From a virus: DNA of 64,000 nt. Location of the stretch: the IMG/VR virus record IMGVR_UViG_3300042888_001941, positions 72,435 to 136,434 of that record; one strand, 5' to 3'. Below the pieces are notes generated by a model. It did no database searches. It was not told where the DNA came from and worked only from the letters and a program-made list of their open reading frames with translations. The stretch's first letter is position 1. Each line of letters opens with the position of its first letter. Below are positions 17,072-39,796 of the stretch, in pieces. A program made the position numbers and the translations under genes.

Positions 17072-17090
17072 AAATCTCAATCATTATGGC

Positions 17091-17107
17091 GGGAAACGCG
17101 CTATAAT
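17091..17107 (+). promoter_or_regulatory. Promoter-like motif GGGAAACGCGCTATAAT
   Basis: Perfect TATAAT with a conserved upstream AAACGC, at the start of cassette 2. Confidence 0.7.
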
Positions 17108-17122
17108 ATGCACATCACATAA

Positions 17123-17491
<369 letters not shown>

Positions 17492-17494
17492 CGC

Positions 17495-17824: not shown

Positions 17825-17836
17825 GGAGACTAACTC

Positions 17837-18451
17837 ATGGCAGTTAGTCGTCTCTCTCAACAGAGTATTCAACAGTCTTTTCCTAAAGGGAACACCTTAT
17901 GGGACGGCACTACTGCTACGTCTGCGTTTGATAGTTTAGGGACTGTCTATGTTTCTTCTTCTGGCAGTGTAGGCATCGCGTCATTCACAAACGTGCCTCA
18001 GACGTACACTCACCTTCAACTGCGTCTTTGCGTTGTTGAATCAACTGCAGATTCATATTTTTTAGCTACGTACAACAGTGACACTGCTCAAGCAAACTAT
18101 CCTCGTCATCGCCTTTGGGGTAATGGCGCTTCTGTCGGATCTAACTCGGCAGTCAACGTTGATGCTTCTACTAGAAGCGCTATGCTTGGATCACCATTGT
18201 ACAGTACTACGCACCCTGGGGTAGTTATTGCCGACATACTAGACTACGCCAATACAAGCAAGAACAAGACTACCATGTCATTTTTTGGACAGGACGCTAA
18301 TGGAAGCGGTATAGTCGAGCTTCATTCAAGCGTCTGGCTTAACACCGCCGCAATAACAAGAGTCGATGTTCGTTGTAACCTGGCTGGCGGCGGCTCTGGT
18401 TCATCTACATTTAACGCTGGCTCGACAATTTCTCTGTACGGAGTTAAATAA
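17837..18451 (+). CDS. Cassette 2 gene A: beta domain only
   Basis: MAVSRLS N-terminus; FTNVPQTYTHLQLR...DILDYANTSKNKT...ISLYGVK. Confidence 0.78.
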   Translation: MAVSRLSQQSIQQSFPKGNTLWDGTTATSAFDSLGTVYVSSSGSVGIASFTNVPQTYTHLQLRLCVVESTADSYFLATYNSDTAQANYPRHRLWGNGASVGSNSAVNVDASTRSAMLGSPLYSTTHPGVVIADILDYANTSKNKTTMSFFGQDANGSGIVELHSSVWLNTAAITRVDVRCNLAGGGSGSSTFNAGSTISLYGVK

Positions 18452-18453
18452 AA

Positions 18454-19821
18454 GTGGCTACCTACAAACCTCTGCAGTCAATCACTTTAACGTCAAACGC
18501 GTCAAGCGTTACTTTTTCTGGCATTTCGCAAGACTATACTGATTTAGTACTAGTTTCACAGACCCAGCAAGTAACATCAGGTGAAGATTTGGCAATTAGA
18601 TTCAATAATGATTCTACTTCTATATACTCAAGAACGTACATCTGCGGCGATGGGTCAACCGCGCACAGTGGAAGAAGCACAAGTCAGACTTATATAATTC
18701 TTGACCACCATGGGACACCGCCAACCTCAACAAGTTTTGGTAGTTCAATAGTTAATATACCGAACTATTCAAACACTACTTTAAATAAAACGGTGCTCAA
18801 CAGAAATGGTTCTATTGATTCATCACCAGCAGTGGCTACTGTTTCAAACGTAGGGCTATGGCGCTCAACGTCAGCAATTACTTCAATTACAGTTCTTTGC
18901 ACGAATTCAAGTAATCTAAAAGCAGGCTCTACCTTTGACTTGTATGGAATTAAGTCAGGTACTCCAAAAGCTATTGGCGGAGATATCACTACTACTGATG
19001 GAACATATTGGTACCACGCATTTAAAAGCACCGGAGCATTTACAGTTCAACAAGGAGCTTCTTTATCTGTTGACTACCTAGTTATCGCTGGTGGCGGTGG
19101 TGGCGGCAGCGTTGGAACACAAGGTGGCGGTGGTGGAGCTGGAGGATTGCGCTCAACAGTAACTGCAACTGGCGGAGGCGGATCATTAGAATCTGCTATC
19201 ACTCTTGCTGGAGGAAGTGTTACAACTGTAGTTGTTGGCGCTGGCGGAGAAGTTGATAGCCAAGGAAGCAACTCATCATTTTCTACTATTACATCAACAG
19301 GTGGCGGTAGAGGCGGACATTACTCTTCAACAACTGGTGGAGATGGCGGTTCAGGTGGTGGCGCAGGAGCTGGCGCTGGTGGAACATACGTAGGCGGAGC
19401 AGCTTCTCCAAGTGGACAAGGTTACGCAGGCGGTGGTTCACCTGGCTCTAGTGGAAATCATCGTGGAGGTGGCGGCGGCGGAGCAGGCGCTGTTGGCGCA
19501 ACAGCATCTACTAACGCTGGTGCAGGTGGCGCAGGCGTAGCTATTTCAGCTTTCGCGTCTGCAACTGGAACTGGTGTAAGTAACTTCTACGCTGGTGGCG
19601 GAGGAGGAGGCTCTCAATCAAACACTGCAACTGCTGGAGCTGGTGGCTCAGGTGGCGGCGGCTCAGGAGCTAAAGATGACCCAGGTGGAAACGTAACTGC
19701 GCATGCGACAGCAGGAACTGCAAATACTGGTGGAGGCGGTGGTGGCAGAGCTGGAAGTGGCACTGTAAGCACAGTTGGAAGAGGCGGTTCAGGTATTGTA
19801 ATTGTGAGGTATGCAGTATGA
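18454..19821 (+). CDS. Cassette 2 gene B: beta domain plus glycine-rich domain
   Basis: GTG start; SVTFSGISQDYTDL...FDLYGIK, then a Gly-rich domain ending GSGIVIVRYAV. Confidence 0.8.
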   Translation: MATYKPLQSITLTSNASSVTFSGISQDYTDLVLVSQTQQVTSGEDLAIRFNNDSTSIYSRTYICGDGSTAHSGRSTSQTYIILDHHGTPPTSTSFGSSIVNIPNYSNTTLNKTVLNRNGSIDSSPAVATVSNVGLWRSTSAITSITVLCTNSSNLKAGSTFDLYGIKSGTPKAIGGDITTTDGTYWYHAFKSTGAFTVQQGASLSVDYLVIAGGGGGGSVGTQGGGGGAGGLRSTVTATGGGGSLESAITLAGGSVTTVVVGAGGEVDSQGSNSSFSTITSTGGGRGGHYSSTTGGDGGSGGGAGAGAGGTYVGGAASPSGQGYAGGGSPGSSGNHRGGGGGGAGAVGATASTNAGAGGAGVAISAFASATGTGVSNFYAGGGGGGSQSNTATAGAGGSGGGGSGAKDDPGGNVTAHATAGTANTGGGGGGRAGSGTVSTVGRGGSGIVIVRYAV

Positions 19822-21200
19822 GTCTAGAAACTATGACAAAGATCTCTACTATAACTGTAGGTGCAGGAGGCTCTGCTTCTATTTCTTTTTCTAATATTCC
19901 TCAAGGTTACACCGATCTTGTACTAAAACTTTCAACAAGAACAGATGCGTCTGGCTGGACAACTACAGGCTTGGTTTTGACTTTTAACGGGAGCAGCGCA
20001 TCTACGTACAGCAGACGCACTCTTTACAACACATCAGCTGGCTCTGCTGGCAGCGATAGCACCTCATCTACTACTTCATTTACTGGAGGAATTGTTTCTT
20101 GTGGTGCAAGCGCAACTTCTAATACCTTTGGCACGGCAAATATCTACATACCTAATTATTCTGATTTTAATAGTAAAAATATATCTGTAGAATCTGTAAG
20201 TGAAAATAACGGAACAGACACTGCTCAAACGTACACTTTCGGCTTGTTTGCAAATCCTGCTCCTATTACGTCATTAACTCTTATAGACGCAAATGGCGGA
20301 TCTTTTGTTCAACACTCTATAGCAACTCTTTACGGGGTTAAAGACACTATAAAAACCGCAGGCAACTCAATCAAAGCAACTGGTGGAAACATATTCTACG
20401 ATGGCACCTACGTCTACCATGCTTTCATGTCGACTGGTTCTTTTGCCCCCACTCAACGACTAACCGCAGACATTCTTCAAATAGCTGGTGGAGGTGGCGG
20501 TGGCGGTAACAATGGTGGCGGTGGTGGCGGTGCAGGCGGTCTTCTGTACTATGCAGCGCAAACACTCGCTCCAAACACATCTTACACTTGCACGGTAGGC
20601 GGTGGCGGAAGCGCTGGAGCTACTAATGCTCGAGGCGGACAAGGTAGCTCGTCTCAGTTCTATAACCTTACGTCTTCTAATGGCGGAGGCGGTGGTGGTT
20701 CAGAAGGTGGAACTACTGCGGGTGGCTCTGGCGGCTCAGGCGGCGGCGCTGCTTCGTCTGGTGGCTCTACTGCTTCTGGTGGATCTGCAACTCCTTCAGG
20801 CCAAGGTAACGCTGGTGGTAACTCTGCAACAGATGGCTCAGGTCGCGCAGGTGGCGGTGGCGGTGGAGCAGGTGCTGCAGGACAATCAGGTTACCAGTCA
20901 GGCGGACCAAACTACTCCGGTGGTGACGGAGGAGACGGCTCATCTGCTTACTCATCTTGGGGAGCAGCTACTGGTTTAGGCGCATTGTCTGGTGGAACTT
21001 ATTGGTTTGCTGGTGGAGGAGCTGGCCAGTCTGCATTCTATGTTAGCGGTCGTGCTGGCCGTGGTGGTGGCGGAGGAAGACTAGAAAATGGTCAACCAAA
21101 TACTGGCGGCGGCGGTGGCGGAGACAACTATCGCGGCGGTGGAACTTTCACCTCTTCAACTGGAGGCTCAGGAATTATCATTGTGAGATACAAAGGCTAA
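19818..21200 (+). CDS. Cassette 2 gene C: beta domain plus glycine-rich domain
   Basis: ATGA overlap with gene B; NTFG...IYIPNYS...SVSENN signature; Gly-rich domain. Confidence 0.8.
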   Translation: MSLETMTKISTITVGAGGSASISFSNIPQGYTDLVLKLSTRTDASGWTTTGLVLTFNGSSASTYSRRTLYNTSAGSAGSDSTSSTTSFTGGIVSCGASATSNTFGTANIYIPNYSDFNSKNISVESVSENNGTDTAQTYTFGLFANPAPITSLTLIDANGGSFVQHSIATLYGVKDTIKTAGNSIKATGGNIFYDGTYVYHAFMSTGSFAPTQRLTADILQIAGGGGGGGNNGGGGGGAGGLLYYAAQTLAPNTSYTCTVGGGGSAGATNARGGQGSSSQFYNLTSSNGGGGGGSEGGTTAGGSGGSGGGAASSGGSTASGGSATPSGQGNAGGNSATDGSGRAGGGGGGAGAAGQSGYQSGGPNYSGGDGGDGSSAYSSWGAATGLGALSGGTYWFAGGGAGQSAFYVSGRAGRGGGGGRLENGQPNTGGGGGGDNYRGGGTFTSSTGGSGIIIVRYKG

Positions 21201-21218
21201 CGCAAAACTAACACCGCA

Positions 21219-21235
21219 GGAAAACGCAGTATAAT
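21219..21235 (+). promoter_or_regulatory. Promoter-like motif GGAAAACGCAGTATAAT
   Basis: 14/17 identical to 17091-17107; precedes cassette 3. Confidence 0.7.
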
Positions 21236-21260
21236 TTTTAACTGAGCAAAGGATACAGAG

Positions 21261-21821
21261 ATGGCGATTAGAAGGTTTAGCACTGCAAGCATCAGTGCAG
21301 GCACTAATAAGTCGACTAAACTCTGGGATCAAGAGACCTTTCAAAGTGGAATGTTTGCGCTTGCTACTGTGAGTTTAAGCACGTCTGCTTCTAGCATTTC
21401 TTTTACTGGCATTCCAACAGATTACACACACTTACAAGTACGTGGACTTCATAAGCACTCTGGGAGCGGCGCGTGGGCAACCATTGAACTTAATTCAGAC
21501 ACGACTGCCTCGAACTATACTTACCACAGATTATCTGGTGATGGTTCTACTGCATTTGCAGAAGCGAACGCTAGTTTGAATCGTTGTTTCACCTCTTACC
21601 CACACTGGGGTTCTGCCATAATTGATGTATTGGATTACGCCAACACAAGTAAGAACACTACAATTCGCACGCTTGGCAGCTGGGATGGTAATGGGTCAGG
21701 TGAAGTCAATTATGTTTCTAACCTATGGAAGAACACAGCAGCGGTTACAACTTTGACCATTAACCTATCCTCTTTTGTGCAGTACAGCCACTTTGCACTT
21801 TATGGAATTAAGGCGGCCTAA
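21261..21821 (+). CDS. Cassette 3 gene A: beta domain only
   Basis: MAIRRFS N-terminus; ISFTGIPTDYTHLQVR...DVLDYANTSKNTT...FALYGIK. Confidence 0.78.
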   Translation: MAIRRFSTASISAGTNKSTKLWDQETFQSGMFALATVSLSTSASSISFTGIPTDYTHLQVRGLHKHSGSGAWATIELNSDTTASNYTYHRLSGDGSTAFAEANASLNRCFTSYPHWGSAIIDVLDYANTSKNTTIRTLGSWDGNGSGEVNYVSNLWKNTAAVTTLTINLSSFVQYSHFALYGIKAA

Positions 21822-23204
21822 ATGCCAATAACAACTACGCCAAACGGCGGTCCTCAAGGGGAGTTTAGCACTTACACTCCTATTTACGCGCAGACTTTAT
21901 CTAGTGCTGCTGCCACAGTAACACTCTCAAATATTCCTACTACATACACAGATCTTAGAATCGTTGTTTCACCGGCAAGCAGCGACAATCTGTACGGAAT
22001 GGATATGGTATTTAATGCAGACACCGCTTCTAATTACTCAATGACGGAGTTAAGAGGAAACGGAACTTCTGCCCTTTCGAGCAGATTGTCCAATCAAACA
22101 AAAGCGTGGATTTATTACAACATCAACCCAGGAACTACTCTAGGCGATAACACAGTTCTTATTGACGTGGTTAACTACGCCAACACCACAACCTTTAAGA
22201 CTGCATTTTCTAGGTTTAATTCAATGGGTGGGTCATATCAAGGAACAGGCGGAATCGTAAACTTATGGCGCAAGACCCCTGAAGCTATTACAAGCATTAA
22301 ACTATCTATGACTGGCGCTAATTTTAAGATTGGCTCAACATTTACACTTTACGGAATCAAAGCAGCCGCCCCTGCTCCTAAGGCAACTGGTGGAGATGGA
22401 GTCTACACAGACGGTACTTATTGGTATCATGTATTTAACAGCTCTGGAATTCTTGATGTGCGACAAGATCTTACTTGCGATTACCTTGTAGTTGCAGGTG
22501 GCGCAGGCGCGGGCTACTTGTCTGGTGGTGGCGGAGCTGGGGGTTACAGGCACTTCACCTCTCAGTCTCTAACAGCAAAACAGTATCCAGTAGTAATAGG
22601 AGCGGGTGGCGCTAAAGCAAGCGTTACACGTACTTCAGGAGCAAACGGCAGTAATACGTCTTTTAATTCTGTATCTTCAACTGGTGGTGGACACGGTTCT
22701 TTTGAAGACGGTAACGCTAATGCTGGCCTTGCAGCTAGTGCGGGTGGTTCTGGTGGTGGAGCACCAGTAGCAGAGCCGAGCAACGCGTACGGCGCAGGTA
22801 ACGCGGGAGGTTACACTCCAGTTGAAGGTTACCGTGGTGGCGGTGGAACAGGAGACCGTAATTACAACAATGGAGCTGGCGGCGGTGGTGGTTCTTCTGC
22901 AGTTGGTGGAAATGGTACAACGTCTTCCGGCGGTGCAGGTGGCGCTGGAACTTTAAATTCAATCTCGGGAACTGCAGTCTACTATGCAACAGGTGGCGGT
23001 GGAGCTTTTAACTTTAATGGGTCTCATGGAAGTGGCCTAGCAAACCTTCAAAGCGGCTCTGGAGGCAGCAGTAGCAGTGGAACTACTGCAGGAACTGGTA
23101 ATCCAAACACTGGAAATGGCGCTGGCGGCAGATATAATGGCGGAACTGCTAGTGATTCTGCATCTGGTGGCTCAGGAGTTGTAATTGTGAGGTACGCGGT
23201 CTAA
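21822..23204 (+). CDS. Cassette 3 gene B: beta domain plus glycine-rich domain
   Basis: LSNIPTTYTDL...FTLYGIK, KATGG, Gly-rich domain ending GSGVVIVRYAV. Confidence 0.8.
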   Translation: MPITTTPNGGPQGEFSTYTPIYAQTLSSAAATVTLSNIPTTYTDLRIVVSPASSDNLYGMDMVFNADTASNYSMTELRGNGTSALSSRLSNQTKAWIYYNINPGTTLGDNTVLIDVVNYANTTTFKTAFSRFNSMGGSYQGTGGIVNLWRKTPEAITSIKLSMTGANFKIGSTFTLYGIKAAAPAPKATGGDGVYTDGTYWYHVFNSSGILDVRQDLTCDYLVVAGGAGAGYLSGGGGAGGYRHFTSQSLTAKQYPVVIGAGGAKASVTRTSGANGSNTSFNSVSSTGGGHGSFEDGNANAGLAASAGGSGGGAPVAEPSNAYGAGNAGGYTPVEGYRGGGGTGDRNYNNGAGGGGGSSAVGGNGTTSSGGAGGAGTLNSISGTAVYYATGGGGAFNFNGSHGSGLANLQSGSGGSSSSGTTAGTGNPNTGNGAGGRYNGGTASDSASGGSGVVIVRYAV

Positions 23205-24526
23205 TGGCTAATACACTTATTCCTATTCAGACTTATACACTTAGTTCAACTACTAACTCAGTGACATTTTCCAATATCCCGCAAAATTATACTGACTTAA
23301 AGTTAGTTGTTAGTGGGCGTACTTCGCGTGCGGATAACGGCGACTATGCTCTATTGAGTCTTAATGGCGCTGAAGGCAACTCTGCAAGAGGTATCTGGGG
23401 TTATGGAACAACGATACTTTCAGACGACACAACTAACAATGCGTTAATTGTTCCTGGTAATACTGCAACGGCATCCACATTCAGCAATTTAGAAGTTCAC
23501 TGCCCAAACTACACAAGTACTACAAGTAAGTCTGTGTCTATAGACGCTTCAGCAGAAGATAATGCGTCTGCCTCAAATGGAAATAAACTAAGCGCTATTT
23601 TATGGTCCAGTGGTTCTGCTTCAACTTCTGCTGTTACAACAATTACTTTAGCAGCGCGTTTTGGTAACTTTTTATCAGGTTCTACTTTCACTCTTTACGG
23701 AATCTCAAACGGCGTAAAAGCAGTCGGTGGAACACTTACCGTTGCAGGCGGATACGCATACCATACCTTTACTTCAACAGGTTCTTTCTTGCCTAATCAA
23801 AGAATCAAAGGCGCAGAAGTTCTAGTAGTTGCTGGTGGTGGTGGCGGCTGCGGGTACGGAGCAGGCGGCGCGGGAGGACTTTCTTACAAGTCTTCATCTA
23901 CTTTTGACGTTGGTTTTTACACAGCAATAATTGGTTCTGGCGGAGCAAGCGGAATTTCTGCTGGCGGAGCGGTCGGTGGTTCTGGCACCAATTCAGTATT
24001 TGCAGGAATCACTTCTAATGGTGGCGGTGGCGGTCGTACTAATAACACTGGTCTTTCTGGCGGCTCTGGCGCTGGCGGATCCTACTCAAATCAAGCAGGT
24101 GGAGCAGCAACACAAGGAAACACTGGCGGAGCAATCGGATACGGAAATGCTGGCGGCACCGGGTACTCAAACAACACTACTATCTTTAACGCGGGTGGCG
24201 GCGGCGGAGCGGGAGCTGCAGGTATTGCCGGGACAGTCACGCCGAATGATGGCGGAGACGGTTTGCAGACGTGGGCGTTGTGGGCAACTGTCACAGGCAC
24301 AGGTGAAAGTGGCTACTACGCTGGTGGCGGAGGCGGTTGTAGCCGACAGACAAACAATATGGGTCGTGGAGGACGCGGCGGTGGTGGCGCTGGTGGAAAC
24401 AGAAACACTTCTGCTGTTGCTGGCGCTGCTGTAGCTAATACAGGCGGCGGTGGTGGAGCTGGCGATGATGACGCAGGTGGTGCAGGAGCTTCAGGTATCA
24501 TAATTGTTCGTTATCCTTTAAGTTAG
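23204..24526 (+). CDS. Cassette 3 gene C: beta domain plus glycine-rich domain
   Basis: SVTFSNIPQNYTDL, STFSNLEVHCPNY..S.D...EDN signature, Gly-rich domain. Confidence 0.8.
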   Translation: MANTLIPIQTYTLSSTTNSVTFSNIPQNYTDLKLVVSGRTSRADNGDYALLSLNGAEGNSARGIWGYGTTILSDDTTNNALIVPGNTATASTFSNLEVHCPNYTSTTSKSVSIDASAEDNASASNGNKLSAILWSSGSASTSAVTTITLAARFGNFLSGSTFTLYGISNGVKAVGGTLTVAGGYAYHTFTSTGSFLPNQRIKGAEVLVVAGGGGGCGYGAGGAGGLSYKSSSTFDVGFYTAIIGSGGASGISAGGAVGGSGTNSVFAGITSNGGGGGRTNNTGLSGGSGAGGSYSNQAGGAATQGNTGGAIGYGNAGGTGYSNNTTIFNAGGGGGAGAAGIAGTVTPNDGGDGLQTWALWATVTGTGESGYYAGGGGGCSRQTNNMGRGGRGGGGAGGNRNTSAVAGAAVANTGGGGGAGDDDAGGAGASGIIIVRYPLS

Positions 24527-25614: not shown

Positions 25615-26477
25615 TGGAGCAGCCAATTGTATTCGTTGCTCTACTTGCAAAACAAAAAGCGCAGGTATTAAACTTCTTCCTAGAAACACTTGACGCGTGG
25701 GATTACCCTAAGGACAGAATTCATATCTACATCCGCACGAATAACAATACGGATAACACCGAGGATATTCTTGCTGACTGGATTGGTCGCAACGTACAGT
25801 CATACCGCAGCGTTGCGTTCGAGACACAGGACGTAGCAGAGCGAGTGCAGGATCTTGAGGTTCATCAGTGGACAGGTGAAAGATTTAGAGTTCTTGCAAA
25901 GATTCGTCAAGAAAGCTTACGCCAATGCTTACTCACAGACGCGGACTATTACTTCGTAGTAGATCTAGATAACTTCTTATACCCAGACACTCTTAAGGAA
26001 ATGGTTAAACTTCAACTTCCAATTGTAGCTCCGCTTCTTAGATACGCTATTGCTGGAGGAGATCATGCGGATATTCCGACTGAGGCAGCAAAGATAGAAG
26101 GACACCAAGGACAGTTCTATGCAAACTATCATCACCTTGTAGATGACTACGGCTCGATTGTAGCAAACGACACATACTATAAAATTCTTGACCAAGCAAT
26201 TAAAGGTCTTATTGAGTGTGACTGCGTGCATTGCACGTACTTAATTAAGCGCGAGTACATTGAACGCCTTAACTACACCGAGGAATCTGATCGTTGGGAG
26301 TACATGGTATTCTCAGAGTCTGCACGCAAGCAGGGTATTCCTCAGTACCTAGATAATCGACGCATCTGGGGAGTACTTACACTTACAGAGAACGAGAAGG
26401 CGTGTCGCTGGTGGATGGATCGCCTTAAGGATCCAGCAACTCAAACTGACCTATATCTTAACCGAGCGCTAGACTAG
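25614..26477 (+). CDS. GT-A glycosyltransferase resembling the N-terminal domain of procollagen galactosyltransferase (COLGALT1) and PLOD
   Basis: PIVFVALLAK, DYPKDRI, NNTDNT..IL..W, W...R..LAKIRQ.SL, ADYYFVVDLDN, DTL, IVAPLL, YANY, VHCTYLI occur in the same order as the COLGALT1 N-domain motifs (recalled from memory). Confidence 0.75.
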   Translation: MEQPIVFVALLAKQKAQVLNFFLETLDAWDYPKDRIHIYIRTNNNTDNTEDILADWIGRNVQSYRSVAFETQDVAERVQDLEVHQWTGERFRVLAKIRQESLRQCLLTDADYYFVVDLDNFLYPDTLKEMVKLQLPIVAPLLRYAIAGGDHADIPTEAAKIEGHQGQFYANYHHLVDDYGSIVANDTYYKILDQAIKGLIECDCVHCTYLIKREYIERLNYTEESDRWEYMVFSESARKQGIPQYLDNRRIWGVLTLTENEKACRWWMDRLKDPATQTDLYLNRALD

Positions 26478-26984
26478 CTTTTCTTTTTTCTTCTTAGTCT
26501 TTTTCTTTTTGGTTGAAGCCTTCAGTAGCTTCTCTTCCCGTTGTGAATGATACGCATCTACAGCATTTGCGCTTGTTCGTGAGCGCCAGGTAAAGTCGCA
26601 AGCCTCGCATTGAACAAGACGCATGGTTGCCCAGCGTCCGCCATTAGGTGTGTTAACAACAAGTGTTTTAAGACGATTTGGTCGTGCGTTGCAATAAGGG
26701 CATTGCGGGAAACGTTGGCGACGTGATTCTTGTCCGTTCCAGGATACTGAAAGAGTACGACGAATCTCTCCTTCATCCTTTCCACCCCAGATACCCCAGA
26801 TTTGTTTGTGCTCAAGCGCCCACTTTAAGCAGTCTTTACGAACAGGACATACGAAGCACAAGTTCTTTGCTTGATACTTTTCTGCAGGCTCTGTTGAAAA
26901 GAAGAAATCTTTTACCTTGTCGTTCTCTGGCAGCGAGCATGTAGACTCTTTTTGCCAGTTAAGCTCTCCTGGATTTAAGCTCAT
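26469..26984 (-). CDS. whiB: WhiB-family transcription factor with C-terminal Zn ribbon and Lys-rich tail
   Basis: W...C...FF...AKNLCFVCPVRKDCLKWAL...GIWGG, then CPYC...CEAC. Confidence 0.9.
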   Translation of the reverse strand: MSLNPGELNWQKESTCSLPENDKVKDFFFSTEPAEKYQAKNLCFVCPVRKDCLKWALEHKQIWGIWGGKDEGEIRRTLSVSWNGQESRRQRFPQCPYCNARPNRLKTLVVNTPNGGRWATMRLVQCEACDFTWRSRTSANAVDAYHSQREEKLLKASTKKKKTKKKKEKLV

Positions 26985-27340
26985 TGAAGCACCTCAACCC
27001 AGGTGATCTCTGACATATTGTCAACAGCGTCTCCGTACTGAGTTTCACCGTCTTCATCACAAACGGTAAGATCAATATCGCCGTCTACTTCACCAGCATA
27101 TCCATAAGATACATGAGCAGATTCAATAGCTTGAAAACCGTTGCCTAGTGTAACGGATATACCATCACGTTGAAGTGCAGACGCGAGCGCGCGGCGGATA
27201 AGCTCGTTCTCTACGTCAACTCTCTCGTCGGTAAAAAAGACAAGTGAGTTATCGTGGATAGACTCATATCCAGAGCCTGTCCATTCCTTCCAAAGCAGCT
27301 CGCCTTTACGCGAATCCTTCACAGTGAACCCTTCCGTCAT
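26981..27340 (-). CDS. Hypothetical acidic protein
   Basis: 119-aa ORF with an ATGA overlap to whiB. Confidence 0.6.
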   Translation of the reverse strand: MTEGFTVKDSRKGELLWKEWTGSGYESIHDNSLVFFTDERVDVENELIRRALASALQRDGISVTLGNGFQAIESAHVSYGYAGEVDGDIDLTVCDEDGETQYGDAVDNMSEITWVEVLQ

Positions 27341-27418
27341 AAAGGATAATACACTGAATGGACGGAAAAGGTACGGTAAAACACCGACTATTTTTTAGTC
27401 AATAATTACCTTGGAGGT

Positions 27419-27454
27419 CGTATGAAAGTGTCTCTAAGAGTCACTGAGCGGCCA
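27419..27454. repeat. 36-bp bipartite intergenic motif, copy 1
   Basis: CGTATGAAAGTGTCT-N10-CTGAGCGGCCA; second copy at 56813-56848. Confidence 0.75.
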
Positions 27455-27982
27455 CTACATATTGTTGTAGGTGCCTAACACAAGCTCGCCAGAATGATCT
27501 GGCCATAGGTACTGGTAATACGCAGGGCGAAAGCCTTTATCCTCTGGCCAGCCAAACTGTGAGTACCACTCGTAATCTTTGCGCAGTAGAGCAACGCGGT
27601 GAGTAGATGCGATCTGTTCGTACTTGTCCGTGTCCTTCAGCCAGTCTGGGAAGGTAAGCTCGTTGCTGATACGGTCAAGCTCAAGCGCGCGAGTAAGCGT
27701 GCCCTGGATCTTAGGAATCATAGTTGAGTTGTAACCGCGACGCAGCCACTCGTCACACATTGTAGTCGCATATAAGGCAAGACCTTTTTCATGGCCTTCC
27801 CACATCTTTGCTGCCGGATGATTGCGCCAGCCTTTAGGGTCACGATGTTCACCGCGAGGATCTAGTGACGTAAGTACAAGCATGAGTTGCCATGCCTCAA
27901 GTACCTGCTTGTTAAGGCGCTTGTTGTCGAGCTCCTGAGCAATATGCTCAAAGGAGTCAGTGTGAGGTAAGAATGTTTGCAT
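27455..27982 (-). CDS. Pyrimidine-dimer DNA glycosylase/endonuclease V-like protein (MSMEG_6728 family)
   Basis: MQTFLP...LDNKRLNKQVLE..Q...GWRNHPA.KMW.G...CDEW..RG...SH/THR..LLRKD..WY. Confidence 0.82.
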   Translation of the reverse strand: MQTFLPHTDSFEHIAQELDNKRLNKQVLEAWQLMLVLTSLDPRGEHRDPKGWRNHPAAKMWEGHEKGLALYATTMCDEWLRRGYNSTMIPKIQGTLTRALELDRISNELTFPDWLKDTDKYEQIASTHRVALLRKDYEWYSQFGWPEDKGFRPAYYQYLWPDHSGELVLGTYNNM

Positions 27983-28022
27983 GTATGCGTCCGTTCGTCA
28001 TTATGGAAATTATATCACATGT

Positions 28023-28304
28023 TTAGCGCTCGTCGGGGTTTGATTCCTCGATTGACATATCCTCGTCTTCATTATCCCGCTCATATGGCTCTATAGGCAC
28101 GTATATGCCTACTACGGTAACTTTCCCGCAGGAAATACATTCACATACCGCGCCAGGGACTAGGTTAAGAGGAACGGTCACGCTTACCAACCGCGTGATG
28201 ATATTTCCATTTTCATCAACGCTATCTGGTTCCCACGTGCTATTCTCACGAATCCAGCACAACTCGCACTGAGGTGCTAGGTCTTCGTCGTAGTCTCGTA
28301 TCAT
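28023..28304 (-). CDS. Hypothetical Zn-finger protein
   Basis: CELC and CECISC, acidic tail, coupled to the MTase stop. Confidence 0.6.
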   Translation of the reverse strand: MIRDYDEDLAPQCELCWIRENSTWEPDSVDENGNIITRLVSVTVPLNLVPGAVCECISCGKVTVVGIYVPIEPYERDNEDEDMSIEESNPDER

Positions 28305-29563
28305 TACGCGCGTGCTTCCATAGGCTTAGAGTACCACTTCTTCTTTGCGGCGTGTCGAGAAAAGTCCTTATCACCGTTGATTAAGTACTCACGGTCACCA
28401 ATCTTTTCAGCATTGCCTTCTTGTGGATTTCCTTCTAGTGAATCCTTAATTGCCTTCGCAATAAAGTTTCCAGCCTGCACCGCGACTGCCTTGCCCCAGA
28501 CTGCAGGAAGTGCTGAGTAATCCTTAACGCTTTCAATATCCCAGTCATCGGGAAGTCCCTGCATGCGTGCAGCCTCGCGGTGAGTAATCAAGCGAGGTTC
28601 AGTTGGGTGAACAACGTGATCTAGTGCAGAGCCAGTAAGTACGTTGCACCAGTGATCTTCTTTCCAGCGATATGGTTGTGAAAACCCAAGCTTAAATTCT
28701 TTACGAATAACACGCGGAGAAATATCCATCCACTTTTGCGGGAACTCACCATTGTTCTTTTCAACGGCCTTCTTTAGCGCACCGCCAGTGTCGCCATTGC
28801 CTTCCCAGGCGTCATTTCCAATAATGCTAAAGATCTCTTCAATGCGTTGAGCATGAATATTAGTCTTGCCGATGTGACCGTTAACCATTCCATTTTTTGA
28901 GCGCAGGTGCTTATTCCACTTAGTTGCTGGAGCTGCGTACGGTTGGCTATTCCATGTCAAAGGAAGTTTAGCAAGATCTCCAATAACGTCCATAATGCGT
29001 GGAAGCTCTGTCGGCTCAATATGCGTAACATCAAACTTAATGCCACTGCGAACAGCAATCCAGAAGTAACGAGGACGATACGAGAATCCACCAACTTGTA
29101 AGTTATTGTGTTTCACGTGGTACAGGTCGTACTTCTTGCCAGACAATTCTTCTAGCATATTGCGGTACTTAACCATTACCTCACGCCCTTGCGTGTAAGC
29201 CTGCTGCACACTCTCGTAAACAACAAACTTAGGCGCAACCTTTGCAGCGTATCTAACAAATGCGCGTGTATGCTCGTGCGCCTTAGCGTCAGGACCGCGA
29301 TTAGCTTCACCAGACCACACTGACCAACCGGAGCAGGGAGGGCAACCCATAACAATGTCAGCCTTCATTACTGGCCATTCACTCGGGTCATCTGAGAACT
29401 GAGATACCCAGTTATTTCCTAGGTGATGACGGTTAGCCTCTGCAACTGGGTTACCAAAATCAAGTGTTCCAGTGCGCAGTTTCATTTCCATACCTTGTTG
29501 AATAAAACCAAGGCTCATGAAACCAGCAAGGCCGTTGCAGTCAATAAATTGTGGGTTAGACAT
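28304..29563 (-). CDS. Divergent C5-cytosine DNA methyltransferase-fold enzyme
   Basis: Motif IV GCPPCSGWS intact; motif I IDCNGLAGF; VI YESV; VIII SYRPR; IX REAARMQGLPD; X WGKAV. Confidence 0.82.
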   Translation of the reverse strand: MSNPQFIDCNGLAGFMSLGFIQQGMEMKLRTGTLDFGNPVAEANRHHLGNNWVSQFSDDPSEWPVMKADIVMGCPPCSGWSVWSGEANRGPDAKAHEHTRAFVRYAAKVAPKFVVYESVQQAYTQGREVMVKYRNMLEELSGKKYDLYHVKHNNLQVGGFSYRPRYFWIAVRSGIKFDVTHIEPTELPRIMDVIGDLAKLPLTWNSQPYAAPATKWNKHLRSKNGMVNGHIGKTNIHAQRIEEIFSIIGNDAWEGNGDTGGALKKAVEKNNGEFPQKWMDISPRVIRKEFKLGFSQPYRWKEDHWCNVLTGSALDHVVHPTEPRLITHREAARMQGLPDDWDIESVKDYSALPAVWGKAVAVQAGNFIAKAIKDSLEGNPQEGNAEKIGDREYLINGDKDFSRHAAKKKWYSKPMEARA

Positions 29564-29623
29564 GGGAATCCCTCCGTAATGTGTACGGAAGGACTGTATA
29601 CCGCATTCGCAGTAAATGTCCTG

Positions 29624-29917
29624 CTATTCCGCGGTGTTTTCTAGCAAACCTACCTCGTAGCCACAACCTGCGTATCCAGCAATATCAACCCAAGTGTCAG
29701 GCTGATACCCAGATTTTGACGCGTATCGCGCAACCTTCAACCCAACCATCATCATTGCAACATCTTCACGAGTGATAGGCACGCTGAGAATTATAGACCA
29801 GACCTTTGCTATACGTTCAAAGTTTTCTTCTGGTCCGCCGTACTGCGCATCTCTGTCACCAGTAATAATAGATGCCGCGGTGCGTAAAGCCTCTACTCTA
29901 GGAAGATTTTCGCTCAT
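29624..29917 (-). CDS. DUF6378-like small helical protein
   Basis: A..IITGDRDAQYGGPEENFERIA..W...DVAMMM..LKVAR...DTWVDIAGYA. Confidence 0.78.
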   Translation of the reverse strand: MSENLPRVEALRTAASIITGDRDAQYGGPEENFERIAKVWSIILSVPITREDVAMMMVGLKVARYASKSGYQPDTWVDIAGYAGCGYEVGLLENTAE

Positions 29918-30108
29918 TCTTGACCTACCTTTGTGCGAACAGTTACCCTAGCGTTTAGCAAAGCGTCAAGCTCAGTGATGTTCATTTCTGCTGATATAGG
30001 AAGAGTTGCCTCAGTGTCGTTTGCAAGTTTCTTCCACTTAAACTCCGCTTGCTCACGCAGTTCTTGAAAGTCATTCCCGCTAACTGTAAACTCAACCGTA
30101 GCTCTCAT
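29914..30108 (-). CDS. Hypothetical protein
   Basis: 64-aa ORF overlapping both neighbours. Confidence 0.55.
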   Translation of the reverse strand: MRATVEFTVSGNDFQELREQAEFKWKKLANDTEATLPISAEMNITELDALLNARVTVRTKVGQE

Positions 30109-30527
30109 TAGCGTATTCTTTTCTGCAGAAGATGCGGCGTGTAGTGCGCGCCATCAAGAACTGGCGTCTTATCGTCCATAGACTTAAAGATAATGTCGCC
30201 ATAACGAACTCCAACAACTTTTCCGCGGCGTCCGTTATGCATAGCACCAGTAGATCCGTCATACGCGTCAGCCTTAACGCGGACCTCATCGCCTACCAGT
30301 ATAGACCCTGGTTGCGCATCAACCCATAACTCGTCAGGCTTCTCAGGCACGATAGAGTGACCAAGAGCTAGCCTGCTGAACAGATCTATTACATCTTTAG
30401 TCTGATTGTCGGAAAGCTTCATGCCTCCCCATTCTTCAAGTAGTTTAAGGATAGCGTTACCTACGCCAACCTTAACCTTTGCTTCTTCCATTTGGGCTCT
30501 AACCCACTCAATGTTTACCTCAGGCAT
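30108..30527 (-). CDS. Hypothetical protein with C-terminal KOW/SH3-like domain
   Basis: ILVGDEVRVK...HNGRRGKVVGVRYG. Confidence 0.6.
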   Translation of the reverse strand: MPEVNIEWVRAQMEEAKVKVGVGNAILKLLEEWGGMKLSDNQTKDVIDLFSRLALGHSIVPEKPDELWVDAQPGSILVGDEVRVKADAYDGSTGAMHNGRRGKVVGVRYGDIIFKSMDDKTPVLDGAHYTPHLLQKRIR

Positions 30528-30528
30528 G

Positions 30529-31014
30529 TTAGTTGTCCCCTCCTATTTCGTCTGGTAAGCACTTTACACATATACCAAGATTTCTGCTGCGCCCAACGTC
30601 ATCAATTGCGCGCTTGCATAGTTCACATTTTACGCCTTCATCTTTAACTTTGTACCCATTAAGCTGGCGTTCCTTATTGCGTTCCATTTTTTCAATATAG
30701 AACTTATCCAGCATTTCGTCTGTTCCACCCGCCGCAACGATGATATTTGCAACAAAGTGAAGAACATCCACAGCTTCCTTAACAATTTCCTCGCGGTCCG
30801 CGTAAGGAGCATCGTGCTGCCAAGGCTTCCATGAGATAGCCTGGCGCATCTCTGCAAGTTCATCGTCAATGGCTAGCATGTTCCAGCGCATGTACTCAAT
30901 CAACTTGCGAATATTCTGTGGCTTATCGCCTGTCATCTCTTCGTAGTTAATGAAGTATACGTTTTCCTGTAGATCACGTGTGCGACGCAACCAGTTATTA
31001 AACAACATTCCCAT
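30529..31014 (-). CDS. All-alpha NTP pyrophosphatase (dimeric dUTPase / T4 gp56 dCTPase-like)
   Basis: DELAE...SWKPW...EAVDVLHF...K...N..RQ..GY, plus a C-terminal CxxC..CxxC. Confidence 0.8.
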   Translation of the reverse strand: MGMLFNNWLRRTRDLQENVYFINYEEMTGDKPQNIRKLIEYMRWNMLAIDDELAEMRQAISWKPWQHDAPYADREEIVKEAVDVLHFVANIIVAAGGTDEMLDKFYIEKMERNKERQLNGYKVKDEGVKCELCKRAIDDVGRSRNLGICVKCLPDEIGGDN

Positions 31015-31016
31015 CG

Positions 31017-32036
31017 TTATACCTTTCCACTGTATAGCTTTAATGATTCAGTCAATGTAATTGCTGCATCTCGTTTGGTTGGGATTGCGTTTAAGTACGC
31101 GCTCCTTTGATCTTTTGCTAGTTGCATTCTTTCTTCTTGCGACATATGCTCAATTGCAGATGCAAGCTGCATCCATGAACTTCCAATGAAGCCACTTTCA
31201 CGCCAGTCAGTAGCAACTGGAGTTAGAGCATTGAGACACTGAACTATGCGGTATGTCCACCATGTTCCGTTCTGGTGAGGGCTAATCAAAGCTCCTGTGC
31301 CACGAGCAATTTGATCTGCTACCTTATCGTCTGCCCAACCTTTATTCCACTTCATAGGAACTGTAGGATTGGCAAGCATGGCAATGGTTGATTTAGTCCA
31401 TGGAGAAGAAAAGTTTTCTACTACCCATTTATCAGTTCGTTCAGAGTCAGAAGGTTCTGGCTCTGTGATTAAGTACCTATCAAGGTTAATTCCTTTAAGA
31501 CTATTTCGCGCTGGTTCATGCAGTTGCTCTTGAATGTTTTCCTGCGCGGTCCACGGTAGCGTTGGGTACAACGTAGTAGCCCACTCGTTCGTAAGAAGCG
31601 CGTCTACAGTCTCTAGGAGACTCTTTAAGACATCAGGAGCGTTAGCTTGCGTATAACCTTTGCGATATGAGTAAAAAGGCTTCACAAGGTTGTCTGGGTT
31701 CTTTTTAATGGCGCGTAGACTAGACACGATGCGCGTAGGCTCTGGCGCGTCAATATAGAAAGATAGACGACTGTCACCGCGAAGTAAACCTATAACCTTA
31801 AGAGCTCCATAGGTTCTATTTGCACTAAGACTAGTGATAGGGCTTAATCCAACAAGAATTTTGTTAAAACTCTTTAGGTCATCAAGCGTCCAGGACATTT
31901 CAGGATCTGATTGAGTGACCTCGTGCCCTTGTTGAGTAAGCACGTGTACTAGCAAACTTGCAAACGATAACGTGCGTTTGTTTGCGTCTGCTGATACGTG
32001 TGGAGCAGACATGCCAGTTATAAGAATTTTGCTCAT
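31017..32036 (-). CDS. GT-B protein, paralogue of the upstream gene (T4 beta-glucosyltransferase-like)
   Basis: KILITGM...L...GHEV...F.KILVGLSPITSL...YGAL...FYID...GALISP...WW..R matches 32033..33244 motif for motif. Confidence 0.6.
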   Translation of the reverse strand: MSKILITGMSAPHVSADANKRTLSFASLLVHVLTQQGHEVTQSDPEMSWTLDDLKSFNKILVGLSPITSLSANRTYGALKVIGLLRGDSRLSFYIDAPEPTRIVSSLRAIKKNPDNLVKPFYSYRKGYTQANAPDVLKSLLETVDALLTNEWATTLYPTLPWTAQENIQEQLHEPARNSLKGINLDRYLITEPEPSDSERTDKWVVENFSSPWTKSTIAMLANPTVPMKWNKGWADDKVADQIARGTGALISPHQNGTWWTYRIVQCLNALTPVATDWRESGFIGSSWMQLASAIEHMSQEERMQLAKDQRSAYLNAIPTKRDAAITLTESLKLYSGKV

Positions 32037-33244
32037 GCACGAGTCCCATCTGCGTTTAACGCAATACCTTTGTCCTCACGAACGGCACGCTCAATGATGC
32101 GATTACAGTGCTCAACAAACGCTGAGTACTCAGGGATGTAAGGCTTAAGTGCTTCCTGTTGCGCAATTGCCGCCGCAGCTAATTCAGCATCACTCATCTT
32201 CTCAACATCAGCAATTGTAAGCTTATAGGCGTCACCTAATGGATCACCTTCGCCCTTATCAGTAACAAGAATAGACCCCACGTGCGCTGCGTATAGGAAA
32301 CGACTACGCCACCAGCCAGAACCAGCGTGTGGGTAAGGTGGTGAAAGAATACCCCAGTGATTATTGTAGAACTCAAGTACGTCCTGCTCTGTGTCAAAGC
32401 GTTGGCCGCCAAGCTTCTTAATAAGTTTACGACTGCCTACAATTTCAACGGGCCACTCTAATGATTTACGTTCTAGCCAATTATCGTGCGGCATGAGAGC
32501 GCCAAGTACCCATGCACGCTTTTTATCAGCCGCAGGTTTTGCAATCACGGGCTGTAACGTAGGAATGATAGTTGCTGTTGGGTCAAGAGCTTCAATAGGA
32601 CCTAATTCATCAGGCATACGCTTGCGAACAATTGACCTATCACCAAATCCATACATAGGGCATACTGGAACCATGCCAGCTTCCCATCGCTTATCTACAA
32701 GATCAGTTGCTGCTTGAACAAGACGCTTTTCCCATGGTTTAATGTTTTCATCGTTGTCCATCATGTAATAACGTTCGATGTAGCACTTTTTCGCCGCCGC
32801 AGGGTTAACCTCACGGATTCTTTCAAGTGCAGCTTCAATGTCTGCGCGACTAAAGTAAGTTGCGCCTTCTTCACCGCGATGTTCAGTTCCTACAAGCAGA
32901 TGCTTATACAACATCGCAGGTTTACGAATTAGCGCACGTGCTCCGTTGAATACAGTATTAAACTGCCAATCATCAAAGAAACCAACACAAGGAATGCCAG
33001 ATGACAAAGCGTAGAGTGCACCCATCGCACCTTGGCGACCATTTAATGAGTTAAGGGGTGCAAGATTGATCCACAGTACGTCATAAGATGACAGGTCTTC
33101 GCCAGGTGTAATCTTGCGCCAGTCAACATCGTGACCAGACTCACGCAATGCCCGAGCAATAGACGCAGGTACGTCAATCTTTTGAATAGTTCTTTTTTCT
33201 GTGTTTATCTGCAAAGCAGTAAACCCACTCATTAGAACTTTCAT
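32033..33244 (-). CDS. Putative DNA glycosyltransferase (T4 beta-glucosyltransferase-like GT-B)
   Basis: MKVLMSG...L.ESGHDVD...YDVLWINLAPLNSLNG...VGFFDDWQ resembles T4 BGT YDRLIVVNSSINFFGG...YLFTD (from memory). Located in a nucleotide-modification neighbourhood. Confidence 0.65.
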   Translation of the reverse strand: MKVLMSGFTALQINTEKRTIQKIDVPASIARALRESGHDVDWRKITPGEDLSSYDVLWINLAPLNSLNGRQGAMGALYALSSGIPCVGFFDDWQFNTVFNGARALIRKPAMLYKHLLVGTEHRGEEGATYFSRADIEAALERIREVNPAAAKKCYIERYYMMDNDENIKPWEKRLVQAATDLVDKRWEAGMVPVCPMYGFGDRSIVRKRMPDELGPIEALDPTATIIPTLQPVIAKPAADKKRAWVLGALMPHDNWLERKSLEWPVEIVGSRKLIKKLGGQRFDTEQDVLEFYNNHWGILSPPYPHAGSGWWRSRFLYAAHVGSILVTDKGEGDPLGDAYKLTIADVEKMSDAELAAAAIAQQEALKPYIPEYSAFVEHCNRIIERAVREDKGIALNADGTRA

Positions 33245-37973: not shown

Positions 37974-39796
37974 CGGTATTTTTCGCCCCAGTTCTCCATA
38001 GGTCCGTCGATTCCAGATGTAAGTGGGACTTCCCAGCCTTCTCTAGTAGTCATGCATTCTTGCACAACCTTCATAATCTCTTGCGCGTCCTTACGCGGAG
38101 CATTCAACACAATTTCGTCGTGTACAGGAACGATAAGAAGTTCGGTTAAATCTGCCTGGTCGAGTTTAATCAAATTAGACTTAAAGACTTCAGCCGCGCC
38201 TCCTTGAATTAAGTAATTCACAAGCGTGTAAGCTCTATCTTCATCGCAAGGAAGCCTACGGCCTGTCCATGTGTAGACGTATCCTTGTCCTTCTTGCCTA
38301 AAACGTCTAACGCCTGCGTCTTCAATTTGCTTTTGGAAGAACGCCATTCCAGGGAATCTCATATCAAACGCATCTGATACCGTGCGCATCTGAGGCTCAG
38401 CAACGCCTGCAGTTAACGCTTGCTTTGCAACGCCTGCGCCATAGAGTCGTCCGTAGACAGTTCCTTTAATAAGATTACGGCGCTTATCTGAGCGCTGCAT
38501 CGTTGGGTCATTGTAGATCTCGCGTCCAATCTCGGTAAACGGATCTGAGCCTGTAGCATCTGCGCGATTAAACAACGTGATGAGATTCTGGTCACCAGAC
38601 AGAGATGCGAACATACGGAACTCAACCTGGTCAAGGTCCGAGGTAATAATGACGTGGTCTTCATCCTTAGGTATAAACGCTGTGCGAACAGTGTCATCAC
38701 CCTTAGGCAGTGTCTGCAGCGCTGGGTTTTGTATAGACATACGTGACGTACGAGCGCCAAGAGTCTTGACAGATGGGTGAACAAACCCATTCACATTGTC
38801 GTTAATAAAGTTAGCAAAGTAGGTATTGGCAAGTTTATCTGCCTTACGCTGCTTAAGAACAACCTCGGCTAGAGCCTTTACCTCATCATTTCCTGTAATT
38901 GAAAGTAACTTAAGTTGATCCTTAGATGCAGACTTCTGTCCTGAAGGTGTAAATTCAAAGATCTCTCCGCCAAGAGATTCAAACAACCGCACCAATTGAA
39001 TGTTACTTGAGATTGATACGCCGTTATACTTTTCCTTTGCCCAGCCTTTAACAGACTCAGCATAGGCGGTTAGCTCATCAAACTTACGCTTAGAGTAATC
39101 TAGGTCAATACGAGCGCCATTGATTTCCATACGAGTAACAATGCGGCGTGCTGCCATTTCCAATTCATACGCCTTGTTGTACGGTCCTCCTGGGCCACAC
39201 TTTTCCCAGAACATTTCCCACAGACGCATTGTAAGAACGCAGTCGAGTGCGCCGTACGCCCAGTACGGTTGGAAGTTAGTAGGAACAGTTCCCCACGTCC
39301 AGCCATTTTCAATAAGTGAAATATCAAGTGATTCCTGCAATGCAACTGCACGACCATCAACGTGTAATGCAGCAAGACGTTTTAGCGCCCCAGACCCAAG
39401 CGGATCAATGATGTGCGCCATAATCATAGTGTCATGCGCACGGTGCCAAGGCAGTTTCCAATCTGACTGAATATCAAACCAGCGAGCTTCAAACGCAATG
39501 TTGTGGCAGACTATAGGTCCATCAAAGCGCTCCATTGCCTCATAGAACACGCCTTTCCACTGGTCCCATGGAATCGACCAACCTTGCTCTGCATCGCCCA
39601 CCTGGACCAAACGTAGGCGTCCATGCCATGGTGATAGCGCATGGTCACGTGGGTTACCAGGCAACTCACCAGTTTCAGTGTCGATTGCGATAGCGTTATG
39701 TGGACGGCGTTGGCCAATCCACTCAAGAAACGCTTGAGCTTTTTCAACGCTGTCAACAAGGTGAAGTTGAACGTCCTGCATGCCTTTAGTTGTCAT
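37970..39796 (-). CDS. polA: DNA polymerase, family A (3'-5' exonuclease plus polymerase)
   Basis: Exo DTET, HNIAFE, YGALD; motif A DLDQVEFR; motif B R..IKGTVYGRLYG; motif C VHDE. Confidence 0.95.
   Translation of the reverse strand: MTTKGMQDVQLHLVDSVEKAQAFLEWIGQRRPHNAIAIDTETGELPGNPRDHALSPWHGRLRLVQVGDAEQGWSIPWDQWKGVFYEAMERFDGPIVCHNIAFEARWFDIQSDWKLPWHRAHDTMIMAHIIDPLGSGALKRLAALHVDGRAVALQESLDISLIENGWTWGTVPTNFQPYWAYGALDCVLTMRLWEMFWEKCGPGGPYNKAYELEMAARRIVTRMEINGARIDLDYSKRKFDELTAYAESVKGWAKEKYNGVSISSNIQLVRLFESLGGEIFEFTPSGQKSASKDQLKLLSITGNDEVKALAEVVLKQRKADKLANTYFANFINDNVNGFVHPSVKTLGARTSRMSIQNPALQTLPKGDDTVRTAFIPKDEDHVIITSDLDQVEFRMFASLSGDQNLITLFNRADATGSDPFTEIGREIYNDPTMQRSDKRRNLIKGTVYGRLYGAGVAKQALTAGVAEPQMRTVSDAFDMRFPGMAFFQKQIEDAGVRRFRQEGQGYVYTWTGRRLPCDEDRAYTLVNYLIQGGAAEVFKSNLIKLDQADLTELLIVPVHDEIVLNAPRKDAQEIMKVVQECMTTREGWEVPLTSGIDGPMENWGEKYR

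Follow-up and report, generated by a model that had tools for sequence, protein, structure and literature searches.

What does an enzyme of the cytosine-C5 methyltransferase fold do when the residues around the transferred group have been rebuilt and a lysine stands where motif X has its asparagine? The question is raised by a gene for a protein of 419 residues in a stretch of 64,000 nucleotides (positions 72,435 to 136,434 of IMG/VR record IMGVR_UViG_3300042888_001941; hereafter, the window), which forms the right-hand end (64 kb) of a record of 136,434 bp that CheckV rates as 100% complete. The source is a lake phage of actinobacteria, with a siphovirus genome of the actinophage type. An earlier note, made from the letters of the window, had placed a lysine, Lys358, at the motif-X site and had proposed that the enzyme is not an ordinary methylase, and that it may use carboxy-S-adenosylmethionine (carboxy-SAM) or act on cytosine that is already modified. 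The present analysis confirms the lysine at that site, finds it conserved in what appears to be a large, mostly viral branch of the fold, and speaks against carboxy-SAM. The reading that is tentatively preferred, at rather less than an even chance, is that of a covalent C5 enzyme acting on hydroxymethylcytosine-type phage DNA by chemistry other than methyl transfer.

The enzyme, its motifs and its fold

The gene and its decisive sites are as follows (positions are those of the window):

28304-29563, minus strand: Lys-type C5-cytosine-methyltransferase-fold enzyme, 419 residues, ATG start
29519-29545, minus strand: remodelled motif I, IDCNGLAGF, residues 7-15
29333-29347, minus strand: motif IV, GCPPC, residues 73-77, with the catalytic Cys77; the next residue is Ser instead of Gln
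29207-29215, minus strand: motif VI, ESV, residues 117-119, replacing ENV
28490-28492, minus strand: AAG codon of Lys358 at the motif-X Asn site, seen in the sequence and in HMMER alignments to GNAV/GNSV; it lies within LPAVWGKAVAVQ (minus strand, 28510-28475)

The protein belongs to the PF00145 fold. In the Pfam profile search this family was matched with an E-value of 1e-23 and 84.8 bits against a cut-off of 22, and since only profile positions 36-323 are aligned, motif I lies outside the match. An AlphaFold2 model built on a 90-sequence alignment (pLDDT 95.7, pTM 0.93) was matched in the VIA fold search to DNMT1 (Z 30.1), to M.HaeIII (1DCT; Z 29.1, root-mean-square deviation 2.5 over 288 residues), to 3G7U (Z 29.1) and to M.HhaI (Z 26.3). 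The Pro-Cys of GCPPC77, E117 and the RxR pair R163/R165 of motif VIII agree with this assignment. The set needed for covalent attack (the Cys of PPC, Glu117 and Arg163/Arg165) is thus retained, and flipping of the base and addition of Cys77 to C6 are predicted to be possible. Motif IX is shared with canonical enzymes, so that the catalytic PC motif and motif IX are both intact, as had been claimed.

Lys358 is assigned to the motif-X Asn site because HMMER pairs WGKAV with IGNAV of M.HaeIII and with IGNSV of 3G7U, whether the query is the single sequence or a 90-sequence profile. It had been considered that AGNF, further downstream, might be the real motif X; this is not the case, since the column of its Asn366 is filled in relatives by R (71), K (21), E (16) and Q (13). 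Aligned to M.HaeIII, the canonical FxGxG, ENV and GN read NGLAG, ESV and GK, and when the family profile is aligned to the same enzyme, the motif-I Phe corresponds to Asn/Gln and the first Gly to Leu/Phe. Four pocket positions are therefore rebuilt: motif I (Phe to Asn/Gln and first Gly to Leu/Phe), motif IV (PPCQ to PPCS), motif VI (ENV to ESV) and motif X (Asn to Lys358). In canonical C5-methyltransferases these four positions surround the transferred group. The position of the ribose-binding Glu of motif II is occupied by Gly34.

Could this nevertheless be an ordinary SAM-dependent writer of 5-methylcytosine (5mC), whose pocket is peculiar to its lineage and which protects unreplaced cytosines or acts on specific sites? 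This serious rival, unlikely as we hold it to be, can point to the PF00145 fold, to the presence of all catalytic residues, and to DNMT3A, which has Arg at the motif-X Asn site and uses SAM. It has to account for a score of 40.3 bits with the NCBIfam model TIGR00675 (dcm), far under the curated cut-off of 100.65, and for the four changed pocket positions, which are fixed in the whole family.

A lysine-type branch of the fold

Is Lys358 a peculiarity of one phage? An HMMER scan of 1.84 billion representatives (clusters at 50% identity) gave 140 clusters at E ≤ 1e-30, and the query was aligned with the best 150 representatives (151 sequences; counts are of residues aligned per column). The motif-X lysine is found in 140/146, and Arg in 2. 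The catalytic Cys77 is kept in 126/128, Glu117 of motif VI in 141/142, Arg163 in 145/147 and Arg165 in 147/147. The Ser that follows Glu117 (ESV) is present in 135 of 142, the motif-I Phe position is held by Q (64), H (16) or N (11), and the first Gly of GxG is replaced by F, L or Y in 122 of 124; the remodelled motif I and the change from ENV to ESV, noticed before in this one protein, are therefore seen family-wide. Positions that bind adenosine are conserved less than Lys358 and the covalent-attack residues. Of 127 members, 86 (68%) keep the motif II Glu, which is replaced by glycine in the clade of the query (Gly34) and likewise in the Gordonia clade; where motif III would have its Asp, Q (49) or E (43) is found, i.e., Q/E in 92/125. 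Adenosine binding would thus be possible, as a 5mC writer demands, in many members; the glycine in the two clades named is at odds with it.

A second comparison set 65 family loci (viral contigs and named phages) against 75 other loci. The lysine is present in 65/65 of the former, and the expected conservation of the residue in homologues is thereby borne out; in the latter, 10 of which are unaligned at the motif-X column, the other 65 have N in 49, K in 6, P in 4, E in 2, R in 2, Y in 1 and A in 1. Where outgroup loci are aligned at the other motifs they have mostly ENV and PPCQ, whereas the family has ESV and PPCS. The signature of the family can be written as PPCS + ESV + GK + motif I D-[CV]-[QNH]-G-[FL]-A-G, and the query has all four elements. 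G-K at the motif-X position was also observed in a few outgroup homologues, all in short partial alignments: L067 (an IMG/VR contig), which keeps ENV, and L102 and L123 (contigs of metagenome-assembled genomes).

Among the matches listed for 185,579 species genomes, one each, the Lys-type enzyme was found in 1 of 55 confirmed loci (L083, a 17.5-kb contig of a metagenome-assembled genome). This points strongly to a mostly viral family, without proving it. Among named phages the uncultured Actinomycetia phage DSL-LC01 stands nearest, with 64% identity of the protein; the next ones, at 35-40%, come from the Gordonia phages Sixama, Forza, Boopy, BlueNGold, Mareelih, GMA2, Phendrix and GodonK and from Micrococcus phage Kurnik. 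Near-identical DNA was not found in named phages by megablast with window positions 27000-31000. Judged by these sequences, the Lys-type branch is a large, mostly viral subfamily of the C5-methyltransferase fold, i.e., a new variant and not a one-off. No published description of it, or of hydroxymethylcytosine in actinophages, was found in the literature searches, and the available part of the GMA2 paper lists only a 'putative methylase'.

Some members are longer. Twenty of the 28 relatives of at least 480 residues were scanned; eight carry a separate C-terminal class-I methyltransferase domain (Methyltransf_23 in three, FkbM-type in five), one carries a 5-hydroxymethyldeoxyuridine (5-hmdU) DNA kinase domain, one an intein, one a MarR-type helix-turn-helix domain, and nine show nothing further. 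In P0232 (919 residues) the Lys-type C5 domain is fused to the helical domain of a 5-hmdU DNA kinase (PF18723, E 5e-40). In P0231 (752 residues) an intein, with Hint_2, LAGLIDADG_3 and intein-splicing domains, lies inside the N-terminal half of the Lys-type enzyme. Targeted searches for longer fused forms found none, which by the nature of the search is weak evidence. A second, intact methyltransferase domain in several relatives does not sit well with a C5 domain that is itself a plain methylase. Fusion to a kinase, to class-I methyltransferases and to a helix-turn-helix domain, together with eroded cofactor motifs, could also be understood if the C5 domain performed no turnover and served as a base-flipping binder or regulator of hydroxymethylcytosine DNA, or as a targeting module for partner enzymes. 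We consider this quite improbable: Cys, Glu and both Arg are near-invariant across relatives of 30-40% identity, which argues for covalent catalysis.

Is carboxy-SAM the donor?

A lysine at the motif-X site brings carboxymethyl transfer to mind. M.MpeI N374K is an engineered carboxymethyltransferase, as the earlier note had stated and two papers confirm (PMC12783734, PMC12015181; what is quoted here from these and from PMC11347137 refers to the available parts of the papers); for the second example that it gave, Dcm N436K, no mention was found in the literature search. A natural DNA C5-carboxymethyltransferase, CmoX of Synechococcus phage S-B43, has been described in Nat Commun 2025 (PMC12783734). 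Its Arg350, at the site of M.HhaI Asn304, contacts the carboxylate of carboxy-SAM, which is supplied by a phage CmoA, and the ligase CmoY adds glycine after the CmoX step (PMC12783734). In a survey with SPPC and Arg as criteria, the contigs that carry 5615 CmoX genes were seen to hold 4257 CmoA genes as well (PMC12783734).

Could the enzyme of the window, then, be a Lys-type CmoX that uses carboxy-SAM to write 5-carboxymethylcytosine? Its lysine occupies the site of the engineered N374K/N377K substitutions, which create carboxymethyl transfer, and of CmoX Arg350, and the polar Asn/Gln and Ser round the pocket could help to bind a carboxylate. CmoA was searched for with TIGR00740 (cut-off 193 bits; E ≤ 1 in phage records), and it is absent at that threshold from all 35 family-bearing phage records, seven of which are at least 90% complete; these records are the 136,434-bp genome studied here, DSL-LC01, Sixama and 32 further viral records (six at least 90% complete). 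The earlier statement that no CmoA is visible in the window thus holds for the whole genome. Among 301 Actinomycetes genomes, an even sample from the class of a Microbacterium genome, none has CmoA above the cut-off, and supply of carboxy-SAM by the host is for this reason unlikely. Both controls were positive. E. coli scored above the TIGR00740 cut-off, and tblastn with E. coli CmoA gave matches in 83 phage records out of 50,697, among them 48 of Erwinia, 14 of Pseudomonas and 6 of Synechococcus phages. For 80 of the 83 the organism was listed, under ten names in all, and phages of Gordonia, of Micrococcus or of 'Actinomycetia' do not occur among these names.

An Asn-synthase-like ligase (CmoY-like, PF00733) was not found in this genome at E ≤ 1. 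The CmoX structure 8YF3 is a weaker match than the classical methylases, by profile (E 4.6e-16, against 5e-25 for M.HaeIII and 3e-19 for M.HhaI) as well as by structure (Z 23.6, rank 39, against 29.1 for M.HaeIII). Considering also that most CmoX contigs carry CmoA (PMC12783734), writing of 5-carboxymethylcytosine is very improbable here, and the carboxy-SAM part of the earlier proposal is not supported. A motif-X lysine is an unreliable marker of carboxymethyl transfer where no carboxy-SAM source exists.

Two sets of genes met in these searches should be mentioned in their own right. Four of the 301 Actinomycetes genomes (G042, G193, G204 and G323) have full-length CmoA-like genes that score below the cut-off, at 94-163 bits, and which may be relatives of carboxy-SAM synthase in secondary metabolism. 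The class-I methyltransferase domains fused to some relatives were considered as CmoA-like and were ruled out, since NCBIfam assigns them as UbiG-like or FkbM-type and none as TIGR00740.

Engineered enzymes with the Asn-to-Lys change still methylate with SAM: M.MedI-N377K protected more than 99% of sites, and M.MpeI-N374K 28% (PMC12015181). Because M.MedI-N377K methylates fully with SAM, the lysine alone does not exclude plain methylation, and this finding supports the 5mC writer and weighs against the preferred non-methyl reaction.

Linked genes for a probable cytosine modification

Which substrate would the enzyme meet? An answer is suggested by the genes upstream of it:

29624-29917, minus strand: DUF6378 protein directly upstream of the enzyme (PF19905, E 4.9e-30)
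30529-31014, minus strand: MazG-like / dUTPase_2 all-alpha dNTP pyrophosphatase (PF08761, E 4.3e-11)
31017-32036, minus strand: candidate glycosyltransferase of the GT-B fold, 339 residues, resembling beta-glucosyltransferase (BGT) by fold match of its AlphaFold2 model
32033-33244, minus strand: weak paralogue of the BGT-like protein, 403 residues (BLASTP E 2e-5, N-terminal Rossmann-like part)
39786-40265, minus strand: dCMP deaminase (PF00383, E 1.6e-18)
40430-41302, minus strand: thymidylate synthase (TS)-family enzyme (PF00303) of the cytosine-specific (Asp) type, candidate dCMP hydroxymethylase
41287-42309, minus strand: dNMP (thymidylate) kinase-like protein, 340 residues (phrog_761 'thymidylate kinase', E 2.8e-13; no Pfam match)

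The TS homologue has as its best PDB match the CMP 5-hydroxymethylase MilA (5b6d, E 5e-23); AAYD, with Asp, stands in place of the PFN of TS, with its uracil-specifying Asn, and PCT in place of PCH. The linkage was followed in 14 near-complete family-bearing records (this genome, DSL-LC01, Sixama, GMA2, Kurnik, Phendrix and eight IMG/VR records), and in 14/14 there is exactly one PF00303 gene, always with the Asp and with Cys-Thr. The MazG-like protein would act as a dCTPase. A flank of 2.5 kb upstream of the enzyme is available for 56 loci, and 49 of these have the homologue within it; in distant relatives it is directly adjacent to the enzyme. Here the enzyme is linked to both the Asp-type TS homologue and the upstream MazG-like gene, within the window. 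The closer relatives, and likewise L060 and L061, also have the DUF6378 gene next to the enzyme.

For the 339-residue neighbour no Pfam and no PHROG match was obtained, and its AlphaFold2 model (pLDDT 92.4) has as best PDB fold the T4 beta-glucosyltransferase (1nzd/1j39, E 1.6e-6, TM 0.61/0.59). The 403-residue paralogue has no Pfam match and falls in one unnamed PHROG family, phrog_14998. When both were searched by sequence against the PDB, only matches with E>0.08 were returned, and an Atlas search led to unnamed viral clusters, with PF13524 on 12% of the members of one. Since the sequence searches gave nothing useful, the protein is called BGT-like by its fold only. The order glycosyltransferase(s), MazG-like gene, enzyme, WhiB is found in 4 of 5 named phages inspected; Kurnik differs only in having no annotated WhiB, and GMA2 has no annotation for the corresponding upstream genes.

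Because Asp-type TS, MazG-like, BGT-like, dCMP deaminase and kinase-like genes stand together, the gene set suggests a pathway of the T4 type that leads to glycosylated hydroxymethylcytosine, and from it we infer 5-hydroxymethylcytosine (hmC, or 5hmC) in the phage DNA. If cytosine is replaced by hmC, its C5 is occupied, and little substrate would therefore be left in the phage DNA for a methyl- or carboxymethyltransferase. The strict linkage to a cytosine-replacement module thus counts against the 5mC writer, which would find little free C5.

The same shortage bears on a further alternative, in which another non-methyl group is transferred to unmodified C5 from some other donor whose anionic part would be bound by Lys358. 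The rebuilt pocket and the partly conserved adenosine-binding positions are compatible with it. It is improbable, as free C5 is expected to be scarce in an hmC phage and the conserved neighbours (MazG-like, glycosyltransferase and replication genes) include no candidate for a donor synthase. A class-I methyltransferase encoded next to the enzyme in DSL-LC01 was considered as a core partner and rejected: it recurs in one other (L045) of the 65 family loci searched and has no homologue in this genome. Elsewhere in DSL-LC01 (L001, 23836-25407) a 'tryptophan halogenase' gene adjoins a glycosyltransferase.

Proposed reaction

How might the rebuilt pocket be used? The reaction is probably not methyl transfer, because the donor pocket is rebuilt with a lysine and the gene is linked to those for sugar-coated hmC. 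In the tentatively preferred reading the enzyme would act on the phage's own 5-hydroxymethylcytosine-type DNA. Cys77 would add at C6 and so activate the 5-substituent; Lys358 would stand at the place of the methyl group of SAM, in contact with the 5-CH2-OH or the leaving group; and the hydroxymethyl group would be exchanged or further derivatised, with no transfer of methyl. Hydroxyl-acting partner domains in relatives would suit an enzyme whose substrate is a 5-hydroxymethyl pyrimidine. 5hmC can enter the active site of canonical enzymes, and M.MpeI, one of these, is able to bind 5hmC DNA covalently and to release the hydroxymethyl group (PMC11347137). Of the earlier proposals, action on pre-modified cytosine is favoured by the gene context of TS, MazG-like and BGT-like genes, hmC itself being deduced from these genes, and that of an enzyme which is not an ordinary methylase stands as an interpretation of the rebuilt pocket, the kept catalytic residues and the low dcm score.

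A more specific version, which we regard as doubtful, needs no methyl donor. Cys77 would attack C6 of 5hmC or of its glycoside in the phage DNA, Lys358 would aid the departure of the 5-CH2-O group, and a nucleophile would add to the resulting exocyclic methylene intermediate, so that a new hypermodified cytosine is written. The family would in that case do for cytosine what the kinase-driven route of hypermodification does for thymidine, and the fusion of one relative to a 5-hmdU DNA kinase domain would be explained.

Several points weigh against the preferred reading of non-methyl chemistry on hmC-type DNA, in addition to the SAM activity of the engineered enzymes. Biochemical or mass-spectrometry results on any member were found neither in the literature searches nor in the available part of the GMA2 paper. 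The Asp-type TS homologue could be a dCMP methylase instead, and most members may bind a nucleoside cofactor, to judge from the motif II Glu (68%) and the motif III Q/E (92/125). Searches of this genome gave no 5-hmdU-kinase-like gene and no class-I methyltransferase (Methyltransf_25) by which a leaving group or a subsequent step could be provided.

If the enzyme is active on hydroxymethylcytosine DNA, it would represent a new post-replicative cytosine chemistry on the best-studied DNA-modifying fold, with a possible use as a tool for 5hmC labelling. Even if only 5mC is made, the family would show how far the cofactor pocket of a C5-methyltransferase can drift. Cultured members among Gordonia and Micrococcus phages make the question testable.

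Other genes of the window

The window further contains genes for WhiB (26469-26984), PolA, an SNF2 helicase, a PD-(D/E)XK nuclease and Prim-Pol/D5, as well as tail genes and many collagen-like fibre genes. Two genes downstream of the enzyme a pyrimidine-dimer DNA glycosylase is encoded (PF03013, E 3e-20), in the same place as in DSL-LC01. An oxygenase dependent on 2-oxoglutarate (2OG) and Fe(II) overlaps a gene that matches 'ferrochelatase' families of PHROG; the oxygenase (PF13640) is prolyl-hydroxylase-like and not of the TET/JBP kind. On the other strand, six paralogues with small genes between them are preceded by three large collagen-repeat genes.

27455-27982, minus strand: pyrimidine-dimer DNA glycosylase
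43948-44547 and 43370-43960, minus strand: overlapping 2OG-Fe(II) oxygenase and 196-residue gene matching the 'ferrochelatase' families
14003-24526, plus strand: six paralogous genes for proteins of 440-460 residues with C-terminal Gly_rich_2
5774-12772: three large collagen-repeat genes preceding the six Gly_rich_2 paralogues

Comparison with known systems

Which of the known systems does the enzyme resemble? With SpCmoX (8YF3; PMC12783734) it shares a phage-encoded C5-methyltransferase fold, a basic residue at the site of M.HhaI Asn304 and, if its predicted function is correct, the role of an enzyme that installs a handle for DNA hypermodification. CmoX has Arg350 and SPPC, whereas the present protein has Lys358 and CPPC and so falls outside the definition used in the CmoX survey; Glu47 and Asp69, which bind ribose and adenine, are retained in CmoX (PMC12783734), whereas here the Glu position is Gly34; and CmoX is accompanied by CmoA and by an Asn-synthase-like ligase (PMC12783734), neither of which was found in this genome. 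The engineered M.MpeI N374K and M.MedI N377K have the same lysine at the motif-X Asn site, but they are otherwise canonical, act on unmodified CpG and still use SAM (PMC12015181, PMC12783734). In the family described here, by contrast, motifs I, IV and VI have changed consistently together with the lysine, and no carboxy-SAM synthase was found in its phage records.

M.HaeIII (1DCT), M.HhaI and 3G7U of prophage CP-933R are the best matches in sequence and fold, and the catalytic Cys, the Glu, RxR and motif IX are common to all of them; their FxGxG, PCQ, ENV and GN, however, are all altered in this enzyme.

The cytosine-replacement system of T4 consists of dCMP hydroxymethylase, dCTPase, dNMP kinase and beta-glucosyltransferase, the last of which glucosylates hmC in DNA. 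The phage studied here has likely counterparts in its Asp-type TS homologue, MazG-like dNTPase, kinase-like gene and BGT-like fold, along with dCMP deaminase. No gene of the C5-methyltransferase fold is known to belong to the T4 pathway, whereas the module of these phages consistently includes one.

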